From positions 1-21,355 of IMG/VR virus record IMGVR_UViG_2541047698_000017: 21,355 nt of DNA. One strand, 5' to 3'. The notes under the pieces are model-generated. The model made no database searches. It was not told the DNA's origin and saw only the letters and a list, made by a program, of their open reading frames with translations. Below, piece by piece: positions 3,225 to 15,870 of this stretch. Position 1 is the first letter of the stretch. Each line of letters begins with the position of its first letter. A program made the translations under genes and the position numbers. Source of the stretch: a virus. Taxonomy: Duplodnaviria; Heunggongvirae; Uroviricota; Caudoviricetes.

Positions 3225-3733
3225 CAGATTTGACTCACGATGCAGCGTGGCTTGTCCTGGATACGCGCCACCGCCCAGCGCATATCCCGCCACAGTTCAT
3301 CAATGGTGCTGTCAATGCTGTCGGCCTTCTTGTCGCCTTTCGCACTGGCATCCACACCGCGATAACGTTCATAAAGCGACGCGGTCGCCATCGCACACAC
3401 GGCGCGCTCGTAATAAAAAACTTTGATGCTTTCACCGTCGATGTCGTCCGCCGGGACGTCCACCAGACGCGTAAAACCGGCAGCAATTTTCTGTTCGCGG
3501 TACTCGTACAGCTCCGCATTCGTTTCAGCCATGCCTGACTTGATGGCCTCTCGCAGACGGGCGGGGGCGACGGTCTGCTCAAGGCGCATACGTTCCCGGA
3601 CGCGCTTCGGGTCGATATCGGGAAAAAAGAACGTGTTTTTAATCACCGGCTCGTCGCCTGCCGGTTGCGGGATGACCACCGTACCCTCACCGGACACGGG
3701 AGCCTCCTTTCGCGGAATAATCAGCGTCATCAT
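3224..3733 (-). CDS. L: P2 gpL-like head completion protein (169 aa)
   Basis: ATG at 3733 (MMTLIIPRKEAPVSGEG...) with GAGG about 6 nt upstream; 169 aa as in P2 L. Confidence 0.88.
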   Translation of the reverse strand: MMTLIIPRKEAPVSGEGTVVIPQPAGDEPVIKNTFFFPDIDPKRVRERMRLEQTVAPARLREAIKSGMAETNAELYEYREQKIAAGFTRLVDVPADDIDGESIKVFYYERAVCAMATASLYERYRGVDASAKGDKKADSIDSTIDELWRDMRWAVARIQDKPRCIVSQI

Positions 3734-3832
3734 GACTACCTCTGAAAAGTCGGGCGGTGGACGCCGGTGCAGTGTCAGGTGATTCACCCTCACTGACCGG
3801 CGTGCCGCCCTGGCGCGGGGCGCATTCGGTTG

Positions 3833-4576
3833 TTAACTGGCTTTCTTTTTCGGGCGTCCACGTTTTGCCGGTGTCGCACTCCGGGTCTTACGCGGGGCGC
3901 GGGTGGCCGCTTTTGGCTGTGGCTCCGGCTTCGGTTTCAGTTCCCGCTCCAGTCGTTCAATCTCTTTTTTGACGCCTGCCTGACAGTCGAGCTGTGTCGC
4001 ACGTTGCAGGTGCGCCAGCGCCCCTGCGGCATCACCAGCGTCACGCAGAAACAGACCGGTGATTTTGTGCAGCTTTGCGCGCACTTCATCAGGCATGTCA
4101 GCCGTGGCGGTCAGTTCAAGGGTGTCCGTCAGCAGGCGGGTATCCACAGACTCACCGGCAGCGTGAGCGCGCATGGCCGCAAGCGCCACCTCCTCGGTGA
4201 ACATGTACGGCGGGGTGCGGCGGTGTTTACCCGGCATGGTCAGACCGTACTTCAGGGCATAACGGGCAATCTCCAGCGCACCGGCAATATCGCCGGTATC
4301 CAGACGCCACAGCATGACCGTCATCAGAATGTCATCCTGTGCACCTTTGCCCTGCTCCAGCACGCCGTTCACCCACGGCAACCAGAACGGCAGCAGTTCG
4401 CGTTTTTTCGCGGCCTTCAGCTCTTTTGAATAAATCGCTTTCAGTGTGCGCTGGTCTGCGGCCAGCTTGACCAGCATCTGCTCATAGACAGTTGCATGTC
4501 GCAGCGGGGCGGCTTCCCGCTGCGCGGTCATCGCTGCCGAGACCCGCATCATGTGGCGCTGTGCGGGACTCGTCAT
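3833..4576 (-). CDS. M: P2 gpM-like terminase small (endonuclease) subunit (247 aa)
   Basis: Size and position directly downstream of N; basic Lys/Arg-rich C-terminal tail; synteny with P2 M. Confidence 0.88.
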   Translation of the reverse strand: MTSPAQRHMMRVSAAMTAQREAAPLRHATVYEQMLVKLAADQRTLKAIYSKELKAAKKRELLPFWLPWVNGVLEQGKGAQDDILMTVMLWRLDTGDIAGALEIARYALKYGLTMPGKHRRTPPYMFTEEVALAAMRAHAAGESVDTRLLTDTLELTATADMPDEVRAKLHKITGLFLRDAGDAAGALAHLQRATQLDCQAGVKKEIERLERELKPKPEPQPKAATRAPRKTRSATPAKRGRPKKKAS

Positions 4577-6738: not shown

Positions 6739-8511
6739 ATGACCATCACCACAGACACCACTCTTTTACACGACCCGCGTCGTCAGGCGGCGCTGCTGTA
6801 CTGGCAGGGGTTTTCCGTGCCGCAGATTGCCGCCATGTTGCAGATGAAACGCCCGACGGTGCAGAGCTGGAAACAGCGCGACGGCTGGGACAGCGTTGCC
6901 CCCATCAGCCGTGTCGAAATGAGTCTGGAAGCGCGACTGACCCAGCTCATCATCAAACCGCAGAAAACCGGTGGTGACTTCAAGGAAATTGACCTGCTCG
7001 GACGCCAGATTGAACGACTGGCACGGATAAACCGCTACAGTCAGACCGGCAACGAGGCAGACCTTAATCCGAACGTCGCTAACCGCAACAAAGGCGGGCG
7101 TCGCAAACCGAAAAAGAATTTTTTCAGTGACGAGGCCATCGAAAAGCTGGAGCAGATTTTCTTTGAGCAGTCTTTCGACTATCAGTTGCACTGGTATCGC
7201 GCCGGGCTTGAGCACCGCATCCGCGATATCCTGAAATCCCGCCAGATTGGCGCAACGTTTTATTTTTCCCGCGAGGCGCTGCTGCGCGCCCTGAAAACCG
7301 GCCATAACCAGATTTTTCTGTCGGCCAGTAAAACGCAGGCGTATGTATTCCGTGAATACATCATCGCCTTTGCCCGTCTGGTTGACGTTGACCTGACCGG
7401 TGACCCGATTGTCCTGGGCAATAACGGCGCAAAACTGATTTTTCTCGGCACAAACTCCAACACCGCGCAGAGCCATAACGGCGACCTGTACGTCGATGAG
7501 ATTTTCTGGATCCCGAATTTTCAGGTACTGCGTAAGGTGGCATCAGGTATGGCCTCACAGAGTCACCTGCGCTCGACCTATTTCTCCACCCCGTCCACGC
7601 TGGCGCACGACGCCTACCCGTTCTGGTCAGGTGAACTGTTCAACCGGGGACGCGCCAGCGCCGCCGAACGTGTGGAAATCGACGTCAGTCATAACGCCCT
7701 TGCCGGTGGGCTTCTCTGTGCGGACGGCCAGTGGCGGCAGATTGTCACCATTGAGGATGCCCTGAAAGGCGGCTGCACGCTGTTCGACATTGAGCAGCTC
7801 AAACGCGAAAACAGCGCCGACGATTTTAAAAACCTGTTCATGTGTGAATTTGTTGACGACAAGGCATCGGTGTTCCCGTTCGAGGAGCTGCAACGCTGCA
7901 TGGTCGACACGCTGGAAGAATGGGAAGACTATGCGCCGTTTGCCGCCAATCCGTTCGGCTCCCGCCCGGTATGGATTGGTTACGACCCGTCACACCGTGG
8001 CGACAGCGCCGGATGCGTGGTACTGGCACCGCCGGTGGTGGCCGGTGGCAAATTCAGAATACTTGAGCGTCACCAGTGGAAAGGCATGGACTTTGCCACC
8101 CAAGCTGAATCCATCCGCAAACTCACCGAAAAATACAACGTCGAATACATCGGTATTGATGCCACCGGCCTCGGTGTCGGCGTGTTCCAGCTCGTGCGCT
8201 CGTTCTATCCCGCCGCGCGTGATATCCGCTACACGCCGGAAATGAAAACCGCAATGGTGCTCAAGGCAAAAGACGTTATCCGCCGTGGCTGTCTGGAATA
8301 TGACGTCAGCGCCACCGACATCACCAGCTCGTTTATGGCTATCCGCAAGACCATGACCAGCAGCGGACGCAGCGCCACCTATGAAGCCAGCCGCAGCGAG
8401 GAAGCCAGCCACGCCGACCTCGCCTGGGCGACCATGCACGCCCTGTTAAATGAGCCACTCACCGCCGGTATCAGCACCCCGCTGACATCCACCATTCTGG
8501 AGTTTTACTGA
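6739..8511 (+). CDS. P: P2 gpP-like terminase large (ATPase) subunit (590 aa)
   Basis: ATG at 6739 (MTITTDTTLLHDPRRQAALLYWQGFSVPQIAAM...) with GAGG about 6 nt upstream gives 590 aa; the track start at 6709 is a TTG extension. Its stop overlaps the Q start (TGATG). Confidence 0.92.
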   Translation: MTITTDTTLLHDPRRQAALLYWQGFSVPQIAAMLQMKRPTVQSWKQRDGWDSVAPISRVEMSLEARLTQLIIKPQKTGGDFKEIDLLGRQIERLARINRYSQTGNEADLNPNVANRNKGGRRKPKKNFFSDEAIEKLEQIFFEQSFDYQLHWYRAGLEHRIRDILKSRQIGATFYFSREALLRALKTGHNQIFLSASKTQAYVFREYIIAFARLVDVDLTGDPIVLGNNGAKLIFLGTNSNTAQSHNGDLYVDEIFWIPNFQVLRKVASGMASQSHLRSTYFSTPSTLAHDAYPFWSGELFNRGRASAAERVEIDVSHNALAGGLLCADGQWRQIVTIEDALKGGCTLFDIEQLKRENSADDFKNLFMCEFVDDKASVFPFEELQRCMVDTLEEWEDYAPFAANPFGSRPVWIGYDPSHRGDSAGCVVLAPPVVAGGKFRILERHQWKGMDFATQAESIRKLTEKYNVEYIGIDATGLGVGVFQLVRSFYPAARDIRYTPEMKTAMVLKAKDVIRRGCLEYDVSATDITSSFMAIRKTMTSSGRSATYEASRSEEASHADLAWATMHALLNEPLTAGISTPLTSTILEFY

Positions 8512-9545
8512 TGAGCAAGAAAAAAGGGAAAACACCGCAACCTGCGGCAAAAAAAATGACTGCCAGCGCCCCGAAAATGGAGGCATTCACCTTTGGCGAG
8601 CCGGTGCCGGTACTCGACCGCCGTGACATTCTGGATTACGTCGAATGCATCAGTAACGGCAGATGGTATGAGCCGCCGGTCAGCTTTACCGGGCTGGCAA
8701 AAAGTCTGCGTGCTGCCGTGCATCACAGCTCACCGATTTACGTCAAACGCAATATTCTGGCCTCGACATTTATCCCGCATCCGTGGCTTTCCCAGCAGGA
8801 TTTCAGCCGCTTTGTGCTGGATTTTCTGGTGTTCGGCAATGCGTTTCTGGAAAAGCGTTACAGCACCACCGGTAAGGTCATCAGACTGGAAACCTCACCG
8901 GCAAAATATACCCGCCGTGGGGTGGAAGAGGATGTTTACTGGTGGGTGCCGTCCTTCAACGAACCGACAGCCTTCGCGCCCGGCTCCGTATTTCACCTGC
9001 TGGAGCCGGATATCAATCAGGAGCTGTACGGCCTGCCGGAATATCTCAGCGCCCTTAACTCTGCCTGGCTGAATGAGTCGGCCACGCTGTTCCGCCGCAA
9101 GTATTACGAAAACGGCGCACATGCCGGATACATCATGTACGTCACCGACGCCGTGCAGGATCGCAACGATATCGAAATGCTCCGCGAAAACATGGTGAAG
9201 TCGAAAGGCCGCAACAACTTTAAAAATCTGTTTCTCTACGCCCCGCAGGGAAAAGCCGACGGCATTAAAATTATCCCGCTCAGTGAAGTGGCGACGAAAG
9301 ACGATTTTTTTAATATCAAAAAAGCCAGCGCCGCAGACCTGCTGGACGCGCACCGCATCCCCTTTCAGTTGATGGGCGGCAAGCCGGAGAACGTCGGGTC
9401 GCTGGGTGATATTGAGAAAGTGGCAAAGGTCTTTGTCCGCAATGAGCTTATCCCGTTACAGGACAGGATCCGCGAGATAAACGGCTGGCTCGGTCAGGAG
9501 GTCATCCGATTTAAAAACTACTCACTGGACACTGACAACGGCTGA
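8511..9545 (+). CDS. Q: P2 gpQ-like portal protein (344 aa)
   Basis: 344 aa (MSKKKGKTPQPAAKKMTASAPKMEAFTFGEPVPVLDRRD...); lies downstream of P and next to cos, as in P2. Confidence 0.92.
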   Translation: MSKKKGKTPQPAAKKMTASAPKMEAFTFGEPVPVLDRRDILDYVECISNGRWYEPPVSFTGLAKSLRAAVHHSSPIYVKRNILASTFIPHPWLSQQDFSRFVLDFLVFGNAFLEKRYSTTGKVIRLETSPAKYTRRGVEEDVYWWVPSFNEPTAFAPGSVFHLLEPDINQELYGLPEYLSALNSAWLNESATLFRRKYYENGAHAGYIMYVTDAVQDRNDIEMLRENMVKSKGRNNFKNLFLYAPQGKADGIKIIPLSEVATKDDFFNIKKASAADLLDAHRIPFQLMGGKPENVGSLGDIEKVAKVFVRNELIPLQDRIREINGWLGQEVIRFKNYSLDTDNG

Positions 9546-9550
9546 ACATC

Positions 9551-9572
9551 GCCGCCTGCGGGCGGCTTTTTT
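9551..9572 (+). terminator. Rho-independent terminator after Q
   Basis: GC hairpin gccgcc-tgcg-ggcggc followed directly by tttttt, 6 nt after the Q stop. Confidence 0.7.
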
Positions 9573-9714
9573 ACACCCCGTCATCACGCCCTCACACGCT
9601 CACCACCGCACAAAACACCCCGCAGACACACCAACGCCTCAACGGGCAGACTAAGCGCCGTCACGACGCGCTGAGACGCTGAAAAAATAAAATCAGCACC
9701 ACCGCCAGCGCGCA

Positions 9715-9733
9715 GTGCTTTCCCCGCCTCGCC
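9715..9733. other. cos site: 19-nt cohesive-end sequence of P2/P4/186-type phages
   Basis: gtgctttccccgcctcgcc is the exact reverse complement of the P2 cohesive end GGCGAGGCGGGGAAAGCAC as I recall it; it sits next to Q as on the P2 map. Confidence 0.7.
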
Positions 9734-9779
9734 CGCCCGCTTCATGGGGCGGTTTTAATGCAGTTGCATCAGGAAATCA

Positions 9780-9961
9780 GAGCTCTACCAACACTAGCAC
9801 GCCCCCACATGCTTTGAAATAAAAGCGAATGCAAACTCATGCACCAGTTAGATGCATTAGCACAAAGCTGAAAATCATAAAATAAGCGGCATAATCCCCC
9901 TCATGCTACCAAGAAACTCTCAAGATGTTGTGCTAAACATCGATGATCTGTACCTTGTTTT
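9780..9961 (+). promoter_or_regulatory. AT-rich upstream region of the accessory island; putative promoter
   Basis: Composition shifts abruptly to AT-rich after about 9780; weak -35/-10-like hexamers (ttgaaa at 9814, cataat at 9890) but no convincing sigma70 match. Confidence 0.3.
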
Positions 9962-11428
9962 ATGGTAAACATATCTATAAGTAATCACACAGATGGAACT
10001 AAAATAACTATGGCAAACGATATCATCGAAGCTTTTCCTGCAAAACGTTTCTTTGTAGAAATGTTAACCAGGGATATCGAACTCCAAGATGCTATTCTTG
10101 ACTTATTAGACAACTGTCTTGATGGCGCTCTTCGTTCCATTTCATCATCGAATGAAGAAATAAACGAAGAAAATAAATACCACGGTTTTTACTCAAAAAT
10201 AAATTTTAATGAAGATGGTTTTACAATTGAAGATAATTGTGGCGGAATTTCGGGAAGCTTAGCAACAAGCTATGCTTTCCGAATGGGAAGACCAAATGAA
10301 AGAGACATAGATAATATCCCAACCATTGGTGTTTATGGGATAGGTATGAAGCGAGCTATTTTTAAGTTGGGCACTTCATCGCAAGTATTAAGTAAAACAA
10401 AAGACGAGGAATTTAAAGTTACAATTTCTCCAGAATGGTTATCCAATGATAAAAACTGGAAACTAGATCTCGAACGTGGTAATGTCGATTTAAAAACAAC
10501 GGGCGTAAAAATTATAGTTAACGATCTCAGAGACGATGTAAAAAACCATTTCAAAGTTGATCGTGATTTTCAACAAAAATTAATCAATTCTGTTTCAAAC
10601 CATTATAGCCTAATTCTTAATAAAGGTTTCAAGGTCTATATTAATGATATAGAAGTCAAGCCAAATCTGACATCATTAATTATCGATACCGAAGCTCTTG
10701 TGTCAGCGAAAAAAGGTGGTATCACGCCTTATTTTTACAGAGGTGAAACTAATGGAGTTTCAATAAAGATCGCAGTTGGATTCTATAGAGATTTTGTGAC
10801 AGAAGATGAGGAAAATTCATTCCTTACTGGACGTAACACTTCCGAGAAAGCCGGATGGACTATTATCTGCAATGATCGTGTTGTTGTTCATGCGGACAAG
10901 ACACGTCTTACCGGATGGGGTGAAGCAGGAGTTCCACAATATCACACACAATTTGTTGGAATTGCAGGCGTAGCTATTTTTACATCTAATGAAGCTGAAA
11001 AATTACCTATTACTACTACCAAGAGAGGCATTGATGGTAATTCTGATATCTATTTGGCTACTAAAGATTTCATGCGTGAAGGCTTGAAAATATTTACAGA
11101 TTTTACTAACAGATGGAAAAGTAACTCTCCAGAACGCCAGCAAATGTTTAGTTCCACATCTAAAACAATTCCTCTTACAAACGACAAACTAGATAGCATA
11201 GTACCTGAAGATAAATGGTCTCGGGTGCATAGATCCATTGGTGGGAATAGTTTCAAACCAACATTGCCAATACCTAAAGAAACAGACCCTTTAAAGCAAA
11301 TAAAATTTAGTAGAAGATTGAGTGAGATAAAAACTGTTGCCACTTTCATTTTCGATGATGATTCTGTTCCTCCGACAGAAATTGGTAATTATTGCTTTGA
11401 AGATTTTTTAGAGAGGGCAAAAAAATGA
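9962..11428 (+). CDS. GHKL-superfamily (MORC/MutL-like, Bergerat-fold) ATPase, 488 aa; start uncertain (alternative ATG at 10010)
   Basis: Three GHKL motifs in order: motif I ELQDAILDLLDNCLDGAL (compare MutL ELVENSLDA), G1 box FTIEDNCGGIS (DxGxG), G2 box IGVYGIGMKRAIFKLG (closest to the MORC-type G2 box). About 350 C-terminal residues have no motif I can assign. Neither candidate start has a strong Shine-Dalgarno sequence. Confidence 0.75.
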   Translation: MVNISISNHTDGTKITMANDIIEAFPAKRFFVEMLTRDIELQDAILDLLDNCLDGALRSISSSNEEINEENKYHGFYSKINFNEDGFTIEDNCGGISGSLATSYAFRMGRPNERDIDNIPTIGVYGIGMKRAIFKLGTSSQVLSKTKDEEFKVTISPEWLSNDKNWKLDLERGNVDLKTTGVKIIVNDLRDDVKNHFKVDRDFQQKLINSVSNHYSLILNKGFKVYINDIEVKPNLTSLIIDTEALVSAKKGGITPYFYRGETNGVSIKIAVGFYRDFVTEDEENSFLTGRNTSEKAGWTIICNDRVVVHADKTRLTGWGEAGVPQYHTQFVGIAGVAIFTSNEAEKLPITTTKRGIDGNSDIYLATKDFMREGLKIFTDFTNRWKSNSPERQQMFSSTSKTIPLTNDKLDSIVPEDKWSRVHRSIGGNSFKPTLPIPKETDPLKQIKFSRRLSEIKTVATFIFDDDSVPPTEIGNYCFEDFLERAKK

Positions 11429-12417
11429 GTACTGGGGGAAGTATTCCTTATCATCTTCGACAACACAAAGCTGTCGAAAGAAATCTATTCATTGAGTTGC
11501 TCAGAAAACTCAACAACTATGTAAACATATCCGATTATGTTTATATCGGGTTTGGTGGCCCTTTTCTAGAAGACTTCAAACAACTGCATAATGCTTTAAA
11601 AATCAATAACATGATCTCTCTAGAGGTAGATGCTAACGTTCATAAACGACAAAAATTTAACAAACCTATATCATGTATTGATTTAGGAGAAGAACCTTTA
11701 AGTAGCAGTGAATTTATTACTCAAAGCGACTTCGCTGCACCTTCTCTAATTTGGCTTGACTATGCCATACCAAGCCAAATATATGAGCAAATGAATGACA
11801 TTGCTCAATTGGTAAGTAAGTTAAAGCCAAAAGATATATTTAAAATAACTTTAAATGCAACTCCTGAAACTTTAGGAAGAGATTTTCAAGAAAGAGACCC
11901 TAGGCGTTTTCGATTAAAAAAAATACAATCTTTACTTACTCAAGATTATTGCCCAGTGAATCTAACTGTTGATGATGTCACTTTTAAAAGGTACCCACAC
12001 CTTTTAATAAAAGCAGCTCAACGTGCCATAAGTATTGGATTAACAGGTAGACCAGATATAATGATCCATCCTTTATGTAATTTTATTTACAAAGATGGTC
12101 AGCAAATGCTTACCTTTACTGCCATTGTTCTCGAAAACAGTGATATGCAATTAGATAGCTTCCTTCAAAATTCTCGAATTAATTTTTGGCCCTTTTATTC
12201 TGGAGACTGGGGCACCGTCAAAAACATTAGTGTTCCCACGATGTCTTTACGTGAGAGAATCTTTATTGAGGAACGACTTCCTACAAAAGACCATGAAGAA
12301 ATTACCAACGACCTCGGCTTTTACATTGGAGATGATGAAGCCGAGGCTAATAGTAACCTTAAAAACTTTATTGAGTATTACAAAGTAATTCCGTGGTATT
12401 CGAAAGTTCTTCTTTAG
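11425..12417 (+). CDS. Protein of unknown function (330 aa), translationally coupled to the GHKL ATPase; candidate effector or specificity partner
   Basis: Its ATG overlaps the upstream stop (ATGA at 11425-11428), with GAGAGGG about 8 nt upstream. No motif recognised with confidence; only a weak Rossmann-like glycine-rich segment (YVYIGFGGPFLEDF ... ISLEVD). Confidence 0.7.
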   Translation: MSTGGSIPYHLRQHKAVERNLFIELLRKLNNYVNISDYVYIGFGGPFLEDFKQLHNALKINNMISLEVDANVHKRQKFNKPISCIDLGEEPLSSSEFITQSDFAAPSLIWLDYAIPSQIYEQMNDIAQLVSKLKPKDIFKITLNATPETLGRDFQERDPRRFRLKKIQSLLTQDYCPVNLTVDDVTFKRYPHLLIKAAQRAISIGLTGRPDIMIHPLCNFIYKDGQQMLTFTAIVLENSDMQLDSFLQNSRINFWPFYSGDWGTVKNISVPTMSLRERIFIEERLPTKDHEEITNDLGFYIGDDEAEANSNLKNFIEYYKVIPWYSKVLL

Positions 12418-13519
12418 AAAACTGACATAATTTATATAACGGTAATAGCATAGCTTCAGCTACTAATGGGCTAACGCTATTACCGATTTGCCTGAAACTA
12501 TGCCACTTAGTAGGGTGAAACCTAAACCAATCAGGAAAACCTTGTAATCGAGCAGCCTCACGTGGAGTAATAACTCTAGCCTGCGTTGGATGGATCGGCC
12601 TAACTGCTTGATAACTGCCCTTATCGCTGCCAGTTCCAGCCCTTAGCGTCGGACAGAAACCATTTGGATTTAACCTCTGAGATCGTGAAATTTTATCAGT
12701 TTCGCCAAAAGAGAGTTTTTTATATCTATTAATAACCTCATCTGTATGTATTGTTCCCAAGAAACCGGAGACCAACCCTTTTTTTAATTTTTCTAAAGAT
12801 TCCGGATCACCAACATTATTCGGAACATTACTCCAAAGTCTATCAAAAAAATATCCTTGCCTATCCATCTTAACTTCACGCCAGCCTTGTTCCTCTTGCT
12901 GCCATTCTTTTCTTATAACACGAGGAATACCGTATAAAGCATCTTTAACTAAGGTTTGCTCAATATCTTGCACAGGAAAGAAATCAGATTCTTTTAAACA
13001 ATTAGCTAATTCCTTTTTGAATCCGATAAAAAAAATCCTAGTTCTAGTTGTAGGAGCTCCATAATTAGACGCATTCACTTTTATTGGGCTCAATATTACA
13101 TATCGGTCTTTTACTAATGAGAATGCTTTTTCTCTAACTGCATCATATTTTTCATTCATTATCCCAGGAACATTCTCTGCCAAGAAACAAACAGGTGATA
13201 ACTCGCTCACCAACCTAAAAAAATGAATATACAATTCATTTCTGACGTCATTAGCCATCCCTTTACCAATTGTACTAAATCCCTGACAAGGTGGTCCACC
13301 GATGACACAATCAATATTACTAACATTACAAGCTGTTAGAATATCATGAGCAGAAAGTTTGCTAACATCTTTATGTAAATGTGTTGAATTTGGGAAATTA
13401 AGAGCATGGGAAAATATTGCATGCTTATCCAACTCAACGGCACCAACCAAGTTAAAGCCTGCCCGTGATGCTCCCAAGCTTAAACCACCTACCCCTGAGT
13501 ATAAATCAACCACATTCAT
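12368..13519 (-). CDS. DNA (cytosine-5)-methyltransferase, Dcm-like (383 aa)
   Basis: Canonical m5C-methyltransferase motifs: I DLYSGVGGLSLG, IV GGPPCQGFS (catalytic Cys), VI ENVPG, VIII TTRTRIF, X QIGNSVSP. Gene is AT-rich; its 3' end overlaps the convergent partner gene by 50 nt. Confidence 0.88.
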   Translation of the reverse strand: MNVVDLYSGVGGLSLGASRAGFNLVGAVELDKHAIFSHALNFPNSTHLHKDVSKLSAHDILTACNVSNIDCVIGGPPCQGFSTIGKGMANDVRNELYIHFFRLVSELSPVCFLAENVPGIMNEKYDAVREKAFSLVKDRYVILSPIKVNASNYGAPTTRTRIFFIGFKKELANCLKESDFFPVQDIEQTLVKDALYGIPRVIRKEWQQEEQGWREVKMDRQGYFFDRLWSNVPNNVGDPESLEKLKKGLVSGFLGTIHTDEVINRYKKLSFGETDKISRSQRLNPNGFCPTLRAGTGSDKGSYQAVRPIHPTQARVITPREAARLQGFPDWFRFHPTKWHSFRQIGNSVSPLVAEAMLLPLYKLCQFSKEELSNTTELLCNTQ

Positions 13520-13569
13520 GTTCAGTTAACCATATATGTATATTTAGACAACAATATTTAATTCTACCA

Positions 13570-15870
13570 TTACTTGAGCTCTTTGCTGAAGTACTCATTA
13601 CTAAAACCCTGCCACTCATCGACATTACTTGCCACATACTTATATTTTTTATCATCGAATATCACCATCGCACCACGCGCCAGCGCCTCAAGCTCCCATC
13701 GCTGTGGCCTGATACCGTTCTGAGCAAGGTCAACGCGGATACGGGTAATTTGCATTCGTTCCGACCGGGTCAGTCTGGCCGATGGCGCTATTTCATGCGG
13801 TTTTAACGGGCTTCCGTTTCTTTGCTGACGGTTTGGTCTTCTCAGGCCGTGTTTTAATGCGCCCCTGAGCGCCCTCACGACCTCCGGTTCATTCCATTCA
13901 ATAACACCGTCATCAACCAGATTAAGCACTGCTGCGGCGTGCTCAGAAGGTGTGGGAGCCGGTAACGAAGTATCACCACCGGTGAGCTTTCCACAGTTAT
14001 TGACAGGACTCCGAGGCGCGGCGATGCCGCTTTTTAAAGTCAAAGGCTCAACGACCGGCACTTTCGGAACAATGCGCCAGTCCGTCGTTCTGGTGATATG
14101 AATATGACGCGCGCCGAGATGCGGCGCGTAAATGCCGACCACTCTCTCGACTTCTTCCTCGTACTCGTTAACGTCATCCGACGGGCTACGGGCGACCCTG
14201 ACAGTCTGGCAATCGCGCGGGACATTTGCCCCGCCCTGCGCGCTGATATACAACGCAAAATCACCACTGTCTGCAGCGGCGCGTGCAGCCTCGACGCGCT
14301 CGTCAAACTCATCAGCAATGCTGACGCCGCGAGGCAATTTGCGTAGTTCACGGTAAGCCCCCATTGTCGGCAGACCAACCGTTTTAAATTGCGGAATGCG
14401 CCACGTTGACGCCCATGCGGTAACAGCCGCAGCTGTGTCTTTCAGCGGTCTACCGGTATCATTATCGAGCTGACCATCCAGTGCATAGCCGTCGATGTTT
14501 TTTGAGATGTATTTCGCGATATATCCCGCAGCACCGCCCCGGTTAAGGTGTTTTGCCTGAAAACGGTTTCGCGCAGCTCCTCTTTCGTCGCCATCCTCTT
14601 TGAGCGCGTAGCGACGCATGATTTCAATAATCTGGTTACGCTGGCGTGGATTACAAAAAAGCATCATATGCCAGTGCGGCGTTCCGTCGTGGTGTGGTTC
14701 AACAACACGCAAACCGTAGGCCTGTAAATCATTATCCTTGAATGCCGTGCGCATCAGGCTCCAGATACGGCAGAGATAACGCTGCGCATCCTTTGGATTA
14801 AATGCCTCATCGTTCCAGCCGTGATTTAGCTGGACGGTTTTACTTTCGCCTTTTCTGACCTGACGTGTCGGGTGATACTTTGACGGCGCGGTCAGCGTGA
14901 TAAACATCCCTACATCACCCTCTGCGGCGGCGTAACGCTCAATACCGGCGATGGTGTTCATCAGCTCCATCCGGCGAATTTCTGGATTAGAAATACTGCC
15001 CATCACCTTACTGATAAGGTCGATGCGCTCGCCGGTTTCCTTGTTTTCAAGGTCACACGATTTAAGAAATTCCAGATTTGCCTGGCGGCGCGCACGCACA
15101 TCACGAATGGCATGTTTACTGGCATAAGGAGAACGGTCTTTATTGACCTCCCCGACAGCAATCAGTAACGCCTCATGCCAGCGCATACGCTGGCCTTTAA
15201 GCTGATGAGTCCACCACTCATCGTTAAACAGGCGGGCAATGGCAGAATATGCCTGCCTCGTGGTCATCTGCCCTTTACGGTATTTTTTCCAGTAAAGCGG
15301 GGAAATATTGAAAGCACGTGCAGCGCCAGCAACATGACCATACAGATGTGCCTGCGCCTCATCCGTAAACAGCGATTCTTTTTCGCCATGCGCATCCACC
15401 CAGGCATCGCAGAGTTCCTCATACATCATGAAAAGCTGCGATGAGATACGGGCAGCAAACTTTTTCAGCTCCTTGTCATTCATTCCCGGCAGGCGCGCAT
15501 AGTGGTCACGCTCTGCCAGAAACAGCAACGACGCGTCGGTGTTCATTTCATGGCGCTGATTCACACGCTCAATGCGCGGCCATAAACGACGCTGAAAAGT
15601 GGATGTGAGGAAATAAAACCCGTGCACCGGGCTTTTATTGCGCCGGATGTAGTCATAGCGTGAAGTAAACAGCGAGCGCAAAAAGTAAGGCAGGCGGTTA
15701 ATCGTGGATAAAACACCTTGCACCTGACGCATCTCGTCACGTGTAAGGGGTCTTTCGCGCCCGACAGCCTCGCGTGGCGCGTTCCATGCATAAGCACCGG
15801 TAAACGCCTTACCGGTGCCTGCGGCAAATGCTGACGGAGGGACAAAACGCCCGGAGGCTTTAACGGCCAT
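13570..15870 (-). CDS. A: P2 gpA-like rolling-circle replication initiator (766 aa from ATG 15870)
   Basis: HUH motif (EPHHDGTPHWHMMLF) and active-site tyrosine region (GYIAKYISKNIDGY). ATG at 15870 (MAVKASGRFVPPSAF...) overlaps the orf83 stop; the track start at 15912 is TTG. Confidence 0.9.
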   Translation of the reverse strand: MAVKASGRFVPPSAFAAGTGKAFTGAYAWNAPREAVGRERPLTRDEMRQVQGVLSTINRLPYFLRSLFTSRYDYIRRNKSPVHGFYFLTSTFQRRLWPRIERVNQRHEMNTDASLLFLAERDHYARLPGMNDKELKKFAARISSQLFMMYEELCDAWVDAHGEKESLFTDEAQAHLYGHVAGAARAFNISPLYWKKYRKGQMTTRQAYSAIARLFNDEWWTHQLKGQRMRWHEALLIAVGEVNKDRSPYASKHAIRDVRARRQANLEFLKSCDLENKETGERIDLISKVMGSISNPEIRRMELMNTIAGIERYAAAEGDVGMFITLTAPSKYHPTRQVRKGESKTVQLNHGWNDEAFNPKDAQRYLCRIWSLMRTAFKDNDLQAYGLRVVEPHHDGTPHWHMMLFCNPRQRNQIIEIMRRYALKEDGDERGAARNRFQAKHLNRGGAAGYIAKYISKNIDGYALDGQLDNDTGRPLKDTAAAVTAWASTWRIPQFKTVGLPTMGAYRELRKLPRGVSIADEFDERVEAARAAADSGDFALYISAQGGANVPRDCQTVRVARSPSDDVNEYEEEVERVVGIYAPHLGARHIHITRTTDWRIVPKVPVVEPLTLKSGIAAPRSPVNNCGKLTGGDTSLPAPTPSEHAAAVLNLVDDGVIEWNEPEVVRALRGALKHGLRRPNRQQRNGSPLKPHEIAPSARLTRSERMQITRIRVDLAQNGIRPQRWELEALARGAMVIFDDKKYKYVASNVDEWQGFSNEYFSKELK

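Follow-up and report, generated by a model that had tools for sequence, protein, structure and literature searches.

Organization of the Cassette

The window, as we call the whole stretch of DNA analyzed here, comprises 21,355 nt of the IMG/VR virus record IMGVR_UViG_2541047698_000017 (positions 1 to 21,355) and carries a P2-like Escherichia coli prophage which is 100% identical to the E. coli EC77 locus over the region examined. This report concerns a gene for a Dcm-like C5 cytosine DNA methyltransferase (the methylase) and an operon of two genes which converges on it, coding for a MORC-type ATPase and a protein of family PF20553. The prophage genes are ordered capsid N, scaffold O, terminase P, portal Q, a cos-proximal non-coding stretch, the island which holds the three genes, A with the rest of the early operon, C and int. 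Gene coordinates were taken from the list of open reading frames (ORFs) and from the RefSeq annotation of the identical EC77 locus (Prokaryotic Genome Annotation Pipeline, PGAP), which agreed, and are presented in Table 1. Both sources confirmed the extent of the methylase gene, its 50-nt 3' overlap with the convergent operon and the 50-nt gap between it and gene A, as given in a preliminary description of this DNA. Gene A belongs to the early operon, reads in the same direction as the methylase directly upstream of it, and ends with the stop codon at 13570-13572.

Table 1. Coordinates of the genes and sequence elements discussed in the text; positions refer to the window unless a locus is named.
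Feature	Position	Strand	Remarks
Portal gene Q	8511-9545	+	Left border of hotspot
AT-rich horizontally acquired cassette	9960-13603		In gpQ-gpA hotspot
MORC-type GHKL+S5 ATPase, 472 aa (PGAP start)	10010-11428	+	
PF20553 (Methyltransf_35) protein, 330 aa	11425-12417	+	Second gene of partner operon; 4-nt overlap with ATPase stop
Hairpin T2: GCCUCGGCUU, 17-nt loop, AAGCCGAGGU	12311-12347	-	20 nt past methylase stop; -18.9 kcal/mol
Convergent 3' overlap of methylase and PF20553 genes, 50 nt	12368-12417	both	
C5 cytosine DNA methyltransferase (Dcm-like), 383 aa	12368-13519	-	PF00145, TIGR00675, PGAP
Hairpin T1: CGGUAAUAGC ... GCUAUUACCG	12440-12485	+	22 nt past PF20553 stop; -20.5 kcal/mol
Gap between A stop and methylase ATG, 50 nt, 24% GC	13520-13569	-	No terminator-like structure
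Putative extended -10 promoter of methylase, TGGTAGAAT	13561-13569	-	Conserved TGnTAnnAT
Replication gene A (replication endonuclease gpA), P2-type	13570-15870	-	PF05840, 408 bits; PGAP
Frameshifted PF20553 genes in other loci	L002 (E. coli GF43) 3380-4371; L102 4998-5994		

The composition profile delimits a cassette of ~3.6 kb at 33-40% GC within a phage of ~55% GC. It is variable, AT-rich cargo placed between gpA and gpQ beside cos, an interval which is an anti-phage hotspot of P2-like phages (Rousset et al. 2022, PMC9122126), and this exact cassette was present in 3 of 5426 E. coli genomes. A shares nucleotide homology with other P2-like phages as far as ~13603-13636, 33-66 nt short of the A stop, which places the right-hand junction within the last 11-22 codons of A. 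The end of homology was located with a longer query; a query made of the final 90 nt of A and the gap had no match among deposited phages. Since homology ends this early, the last 11-22 codons of A, its stop codon and the putative methylase promoter belong to the exchanged cassette, and a promoter that is simply conserved P2 backbone was rejected on the same ground.

The Methylase and Its Partner Proteins

The methylase matched PF00145 with 196.7 bits (cut-off 22) over residues 1-358, TIGR00675 with 168.3 bits (cut-off 100.65) and the PADLOC model MTase_II with E = 8e-95, and motifs I, IV, VI and X (DLYSGVGG, GGPPCQGFS, AENVPG and IGNSVSP) can be read in its translation. By these profile and motif matches the gene encodes an intact, bona fide C5-methyltransferase, which is predicted to form 5-methylcytosine (5mC). 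An orthologue with a solved structure, Protein Data Bank (PDB) entry 3G7U, was matched over residues 1-365 (E = 1e-156). We take 3G7U to be the enzyme of prophage CP-933R of E. coli O157:H7. It is a structural-genomics entry, and no specificity or function was described for it in the literature searched.

The first gene of the convergent operon codes for an ATPase with a GHKL domain followed by an S5-fold transducer domain, the domain arrangement of MORC/paraMORC proteins. Its ATP-binding motifs DLLDNCLDG (N-box), DNCGG (G1) and GVYGIGMK (G2) were invariant in 30 homologues, and its C-terminal helical tail contains no invariant Asp, Glu or His. The N-box occupies residues 31-39 (window 10100-10126). 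At the position usually held by the catalytic Glu, an invariant Asp was found in 30/30 aligned homologues, as read by eye without structural superposition. With respect to the start codon, the longest ORF begins at 9962, and both PGAP and the N-termini of homologues favour the ATG at 10010, so that the ATG at 9962 is an unlikely alternative. Regions upstream of the ATPase operon are not conserved among cassettes and contain only weak promoter candidates, such as CTGAAA-16-CATAAT at 9868-9895.

The second gene product is modelled with confidence as a class-I S-adenosylmethionine (SAM)-methyltransferase fold. The G-loop, the acidic residue ending strand 2 and the Asp ending strand 4 are retained, and the invariant residues are of the SAM-binding type. 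A profile search of PDB sequences with PF20553 gave no match, and fold comparison alone was informative. The family comprises ~2,000 clusters at 50% identity, nearly all of them stand-alone proteins of 320-345 residues.

Searches with Pfam, NCBIfam and PADLOC found no nuclease family in the ATPase or the PF20553 protein, even at E = 1, and neither PADLOC nor NCBIfam had a name for either protein. The score against the MzaB equivalog model was 14.5 bits (cut-off 850), and no matches to DUF4263, HEF_HK or Response_reg_2 were obtained in the partner proteins; the module is neither MZA nor Shedu type I-D. The preliminary description had supposed that the partner might supply restriction. What lies there is a MORC-type ATPase and a methyltransferase-fold protein, and no recognizable restriction enzyme.

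Linkage of the Three Genes Across Genomes

PF20553 relatives with 48-100% identity were encoded by 21 IMG/VR contigs, 20 of which are P2-like. All 20 P2-like contigs have the order gpQ, ATPase, PF20553, then the convergent Dcm gene and gpA, and the methylase adjoins the ATPase-PF20553 pair in 21/21 viral contigs. A wider set of 80 genome loci covered Proteobacteria, Cyanobacteria, Bacteroidota, Acidobacteriota, Verrucomicrobiota, Chloroflexota, Bacillota and others. There, the ATPase and PF20553 genes were adjacent, co-directional and overlapping in every case (80/80), and in ~70 of the 80 the 6-kb flanks also contained a Dcm match, for the most part directly beside the pair. The methylase belonged to the same subfamily in most loci with Dcm (E about 1e-120 to 1e-136) and occurred in four arrangements: upstream in the same operon, downstream and convergent, downstream and co-directional, or upstream and divergent. 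On this comparative evidence the three genes are one tightly linked module.

Diverged versions of the module were present in 256 of 5426 complete E. coli genomes. That of O157:H7 resides in a lambdoid prophage, an unrelated phage backbone, and has a 33-nt overlap; there, too, the methylase reads in the direction of the early (cro-O-P-nin) genes, whereas the ATPase operon opposes them. In Vibrio cholerae (L107/L108, 7617-13088) a Tn7-like TnsABCDE element carries the module as cargo, together with a second GHKL ATPase of 610 residues. The PF20553 gene was frameshifted in two independent cassettes in which the methylase and ATPase genes were intact. Loss of a harmful, restriction-like component would be expected to leave such a pattern; two cases are anecdote.

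The same protein accessions appear in the P2-hotspot catalogue of Rousset et al. 2022 (PMC9122126, Table S5A), the main text of which does not mention the arrangement. Literature searches on PF20553, on GHKL-cytosine methyltransferase defence and on bacterial MORC defence returned nothing on this trio, which has been catalogued at the P2 hotspot but never characterized.

Several variants were observed. A second GHKL ATPase of 580-610 residues stands beside Dcm also in L009, L010, L011, L014, L016, L019, L031 and L032. This extra ATPase had a weak PADLOC match to PD-Lambda-5_A (residues 401-512) and no Pfam nuclease domain. In the cyanobacterial loci L022, L024, L026, L027, L029 and L030 the ATPase and PF20553 genes were found with no Dcm-type methylase within the 6-kb flanks; these pairs either use another methylase class or work without a methylase.

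Convergent Overlap and Embedded Hairpins

The overlap of exactly 50 nt recurred in all 20 P2-like IMG/VR contigs and in two Enterobacteriaceae genomes, in cassettes with 59-100% protein identity. Among 17 convergent cases (the window and 16 genome loci), 10 overlapped, by 50, 50, 50, 47, 40, 40, 16, 11, 11 and 6 nt, and in the other seven the 3' ends lay 1-33 nt apart, with one at 86 nt. The 50-nt overlap arises because the methylase carries a lineage-specific C-terminal run-on tail of ~16 codons; where the genes are arranged differently, orthologues lack the tail and stop 16-18 residues past motif X.

The preliminary description had held that such an overlap leaves no room for terminators. 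This was misleading, as strong and conserved hairpins begin 20-22 nt past each stop codon, within the coding sequence of the partner. In folding energy both rank among the lowest 0.2-0.3% of 50-nt segments in the cassette, and among the lowest 0.1-1% in most relatives' cassettes.

Hairpin T1, past the PF20553 stop, is formed by pairing of the antisense of the methylase GNSV (motif X) codons with the antisense of the MLLP codons. In an alignment of 17 distinct sequences, 92% of cells were paired and 13 were double-change cells, a degree of covariation which 0 of 500 shuffles equalled. Compensatory synonymous changes were seen at three pairs, UA to CG twice and AU/UA/CG/GU at the closing pair. 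At loci where the methylase is upstream in the operon, the same region folded with a median of only -8.3 kcal/mol versus -18.9 kcal/mol in convergent-overlap loci of similar GC content.

Hairpin T2, past the methylase stop, sits in the PF20553 codons for LGFYIGDDEAEA, with an outer stem extending to about 12300-12358, and the region folds with z = -4.9. Most P2 cassettes carry UUGGCUCC/GGAGCCAA at this place, with one compensatory change, and L085, L086, L007 and O157 form hairpins of other sequence within the same stretch of ~60 nt. The case for T2 rests on these differing hairpins recurring at one site, since covariation within a class was not significant.

If T1 and T2 define the 3' ends, the two transcripts would be complementary over ~180 nt (about 12300-12490). 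The proposal that each transcript is antisense to the other's 3' end holds for at least the 50 nt of the overlap by necessity; with the 3' hairpins, complementarity would probably reach ~180 nt and not be unbounded.

The Junction of A and the Methylase

A consensus promoter and terminator scan of positions 9400-14200 found nothing terminator-like on the minus strand between A and the methylase, and RNA of the junction folded no better than shuffled sequences (z = +1.1), in agreement with the preliminary description, which had seen no terminator here. A separate scan of the gap in 13 relatives returned one weak terminator-like site. With no terminator-like site at this junction in the window and next to none in its relatives, transcription could plausibly run on from the early operon into the methylase. 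In the relatives the methylase ATG stands between 49 and 723 nt from the A stop, at times with extra small ORFs, so that coupling to A is not fixed and direct abutment is a property of some members only. In relatives with long gaps, a degenerate copy of the A tail is retained just upstream of the Dcm promoter.

The gap also contains a putative promoter for the methylase, beginning one base past the A stop: TG at 13569-13568, a G, and the hexamer TAGAAT at 13566-13561. This is the arrangement of an extended -10 sigma-70 element, in which TG stands one base before a TAnnnT hexamer, and its position is conserved. Counting the window and the 20 P2-like IMG/VR contigs compared with it, 21/21 cassettes carried TGnTAnnAT at positions -50 to -42 relative to the ATG, regardless of the sequence upstream. 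The variants were TGGTAGAAT, TGATAGAAT, TGGTATAAT, TGGTATGAT, TGGTACAAT and TGATAAGAT; the diverged O157:H7 cassette has TGTTATAAT, and L005 and L007 have TGnGATAAT-like and TGATAAT-like elements. Such conservation is the signature of a methylase promoter of its own, putatively of the extended -10 sigma-70 type. The consensus scan missed this element as there is no -35. Of the two routes of transcription envisaged in the preliminary description, read-through of A and any promoter of the methylase's own, the first is plausible though not fixed, given the variable distance to A, and the second has gained a conserved -10 element.

Two further features were noted near the start of the methylase. 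A three-codon mini-ORF, ATG GTT AAC TGA (13523-13534, minus strand), lies 15 nt upstream of the ATG and is kept in all P2-type cassettes, relatives reading ATG GTT ATC TGA/TAA. The methylase itself has no obvious Shine-Dalgarno sequence.

Expression of the O157:H7 Orthologues

Published RNA sequencing of O157:H7 contained no reads for the cassette orthologues in 11 non-inducing conditions (PMC4048457). This argues that the O157 cassette, for its part, is nearly silent in lysogens under laboratory conditions, keeps alive the idea that the methylase is expressed on induction, and suggests that the conserved promoter is weak or silenced. The cassette of the window has 33-40% GC, as given above. 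Silencing of DNA of 35% GC by H-NS is a natural candidate for such an effect.

Proposed Function and Alternatives

The reading we prefer, with a probability of roughly 0.45, is that the methylase is the modification component of a three-gene, methylation-based self/non-self module, with the promoter, read-through and hairpins acting as follows. In the lysogen the methylase would be transcribed, probably weakly, from its own extended -10 promoter, as the conservation of this element suggests. On infection of a new host or on derepression, early transcription could read through A, where no terminator is seen, and give an early burst of modification. Prophages of the P2 type generally do not respond to SOS induction. 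The same read-through would run head-on and antisense against the ATPase-PF20553 operon entering from the cos side, and so may delay it. T1 and T2, by their conservation and covariation, may form or stabilize 3' ends or act as pause or processing sites, which would limit complementarity to ~180 nt and spare each gene body from opposing transcription. The methylase would thereby mark resident DNA, and the ATPase and PF20553 protein would act on unmarked incoming DNA without a canonical nuclease, which is the least certain step. The polarity of phage P2 supports this mechanism, in that its A-orf91 unit is likewise convergent with the old-tin operon.

Several points weigh against this reading. 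No nuclease or other effector domain was found in the partner proteins, so that a role in defence is suggested by context only. Transcription of the cassette and the transcript ends are deduced from sequence comparison. The same polarity in two phage backbones is what chance would give in 50% of cases, and the P2 cassettes may stem from one insertion, for which reason their shared orientation is not independent evidence. With respect to the hairpins, neither has a canonical U-tract (the tails are AUUUGCCUG, AUUUGCC in the RNA, for T1 and CGUUGGUAAUUUCUUC for T2), and the consensus scan called neither, as the loops exceed 8 nt and the U-tract is missing. They have the G+C-rich hairpin past a stop codon which marks a Rho-independent terminator and lack the U run after the stem; we therefore name them conserved 3' hairpins and not intrinsic terminators. 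Within-class covariation of T2 was weak (35 of 500 shuffles scored as high). The strand preference of G.U pairs was weak as well, at 15 versus 10 for T1 and 15 versus 7 for T2; this bias of G.U over A.C counts has the expected direction and is too weak to decide which strand's RNA the hairpins serve.

The module may alternatively be a nuclease-free, methylation-guided system of immunity or silencing, in which a MORC-type clamp and a 'reader' of SAM-methyltransferase fold neutralize DNA that lacks the 5mC of the cassette, by entrapment, compaction or a poisoning modification. The layout of promoter, read-through and hairpins would then ensure that the methylase is expressed before the effector. 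We think it unlikely that this scheme is correct.

It is likewise improbable that the methylase is an orphan phage enzyme for self-protection, silent in the lysogen, expressed by read-through only and shielding progeny DNA from host restriction, with the ATPase-PF20553 pair unrelated or loosely related to it. The terminator-free junction, the co-directionality with early genes in both P2-like and lambdoid contexts and the absence of reads for the O157 orthologue would all be in keeping with such a role, but a Dcm gene lies within 6 kb of the pair in ~70 of 80 loci, over many phyla and including non-phage contexts and Tn7 cargo, and the window gene has a conserved promoter element of its own. 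The suggestion in the preliminary description of a self-protection methylase expressed on induction is weakened by the tight linkage of the trio outside phages, but retains some likelihood given the lack of reads for the O157 orthologues in 11 conditions.

Classical Type II restriction-modification with a cryptic endonuclease would require that one or both partner proteins cleave unmethylated DNA through an unrecognized nuclease site. The methylase is tightly linked to its partners, the compact convergent layout is that of many restriction-modification systems, retention of the methylase in the two cassettes with a frameshifted PF20553 gene would suit such a system, and MORC/paraMORC ATPases have been predicted to act with nucleases in restriction-modification operons (PMC2292703). 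Set against this, no nuclease fold or motif was found: PF20553 is modelled as a SAM-methyltransferase fold with invariant residues of the SAM-binding type, the ATPase consists of GHKL and S5 domains with a helical tail devoid of invariant Asp, Glu or His, and the searches of Pfam, NCBIfam and PADLOC gave no nuclease match at E = 1. We consider a hidden endonuclease doubtful.

Two methyltransferase folds and no nuclease, together with the retained G-loop, strand-2 acidic residue and strand-4 Asp of PF20553, could also point to a pathway of DNA (or RNA) modification, which would place a compound epigenetic mark for the benefit of the mobile element and have no part in immunity. We consider this unlikely, as the hotspot is dominated by anti-phage cargo (PMC9122126), the module also travels as Tn7 cargo, and its variable gene order and patchy phyletic spread are typical of defence genes. 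Deletion and compaction of a phage genome limited in size might also have produced the overlap and hairpins in passing, with no regulatory role. In favour of this, the overlap stems from a 16-codon tail missing in orthologues elsewhere, the hairpins are without U-tracts and the P2 orf91/tin junction has no canonical terminator either. We consider it improbable, since T1 shows compensatory synonymous substitutions, different hairpin sequences recur at the same positions, including in O157, and operon-type loci lack the hairpins in this coding region.

Relation to Known Systems

The closest likeness in layout is phage P2 itself, which at the same site between gpA and cos/gpQ has one unit running from A and one operon running from the cos side. 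The old-tin start has been mapped near cos, and the orf91 and tin 3' ends lie 38 nt apart with no canonical terminator. The cargo of P2 is unrelated, and its orf91, which overlaps the A stop, lacks an evident promoter, whereas the methylase of the window has an extended -10 element and its 3' end overlaps that of the opposing operon by 50 nt. In convergent Type II cassettes, for example of the EcoRII type, the methylase and endonuclease genes face each other with very close 3' ends, and antisense effects are possible. There the partner is a defined endonuclease, whereas the window has overlapping genes and hairpins that lie within coding sequence.

In gene content, the module resembles the restriction-modification neighbourhoods with paraMORC or MORC proteins that Iyer, Abhiman and Aravind 2008 (PMC2292703) predicted; in both, a GHKL+S5 ATPase accompanies a cytosine methylase on mobile DNA. 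As effector, the predicted neighbourhoods contain helicases, Vsr, or restriction-endonuclease, HNH or TIR domains, whereas here only the methyltransferase-fold PF20553 protein is present and no nuclease is detectable. By its domain content the module fits this broad MORC/paraMORC methylase-linked class. Validated anti-phage activity has been reported for VcSduA (Shedu type I-D, paraMORC3), in which a GHKL ATPase is fused to a DUF4263 PD-(D/E)xK nuclease (PMC12137116); that system shares a GHKL ATPase in phage defence, but unites it with the nuclease in one polypeptide and lacks a methylase. HEF_HK/Response_reg_2 pairs linked to C5-methylases (Bellieny-Rabelo 2021, PMC8011034) and MZA (MzaB) place HATPase_c_3 proteins beside C5-methylases as seen here, and differ in the partner domains.

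The regulatory layout is an ordinary variant for compact restriction-modification-like cassettes in phage hotspots, the covarying embedded hairpin being a neat detail. It makes a modest point about how a size-limited hotspot packs two opposed transcription units, with a promoter abutting the stop of an essential gene, a coding overlap, and 3' hairpins fitted into the codons of the partner by way of synonymous sites and a run-on tail. Of greater value is the system, which joins a MORC-type ATPase and a C5-methylase to an unstudied family of methyltransferase fold, with no recognizable nuclease. Should the module prove to act in defence, it would extend methylation-based immunity by a further mechanism and provide a tractable bacterial model of MORC ATPases reading DNA methylation. 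Were the nuclease-free scheme to be true, the module would be a prokaryotic counterpart, possibly an ancestor, of the association of MORC proteins with DNA methylation in eukaryotes.

Additional Observations

A second, diverged PF20553-ATPase pair or a tandem second ATPase lies on the far side of a single Dcm gene in some loci (L021 9397-11748, minus strand, and L023 2117-3742). The annotation of E. coli WCHEC4533 (L106) gives gpA as a pseudogene without its C-terminus. At the left border of the island, two canonical terminator-like hairpins with T-runs are found 3' of Q in the cos-proximal non-coding stretch of the window, at 9551-9566 and 9733-9752 on the plus strand.

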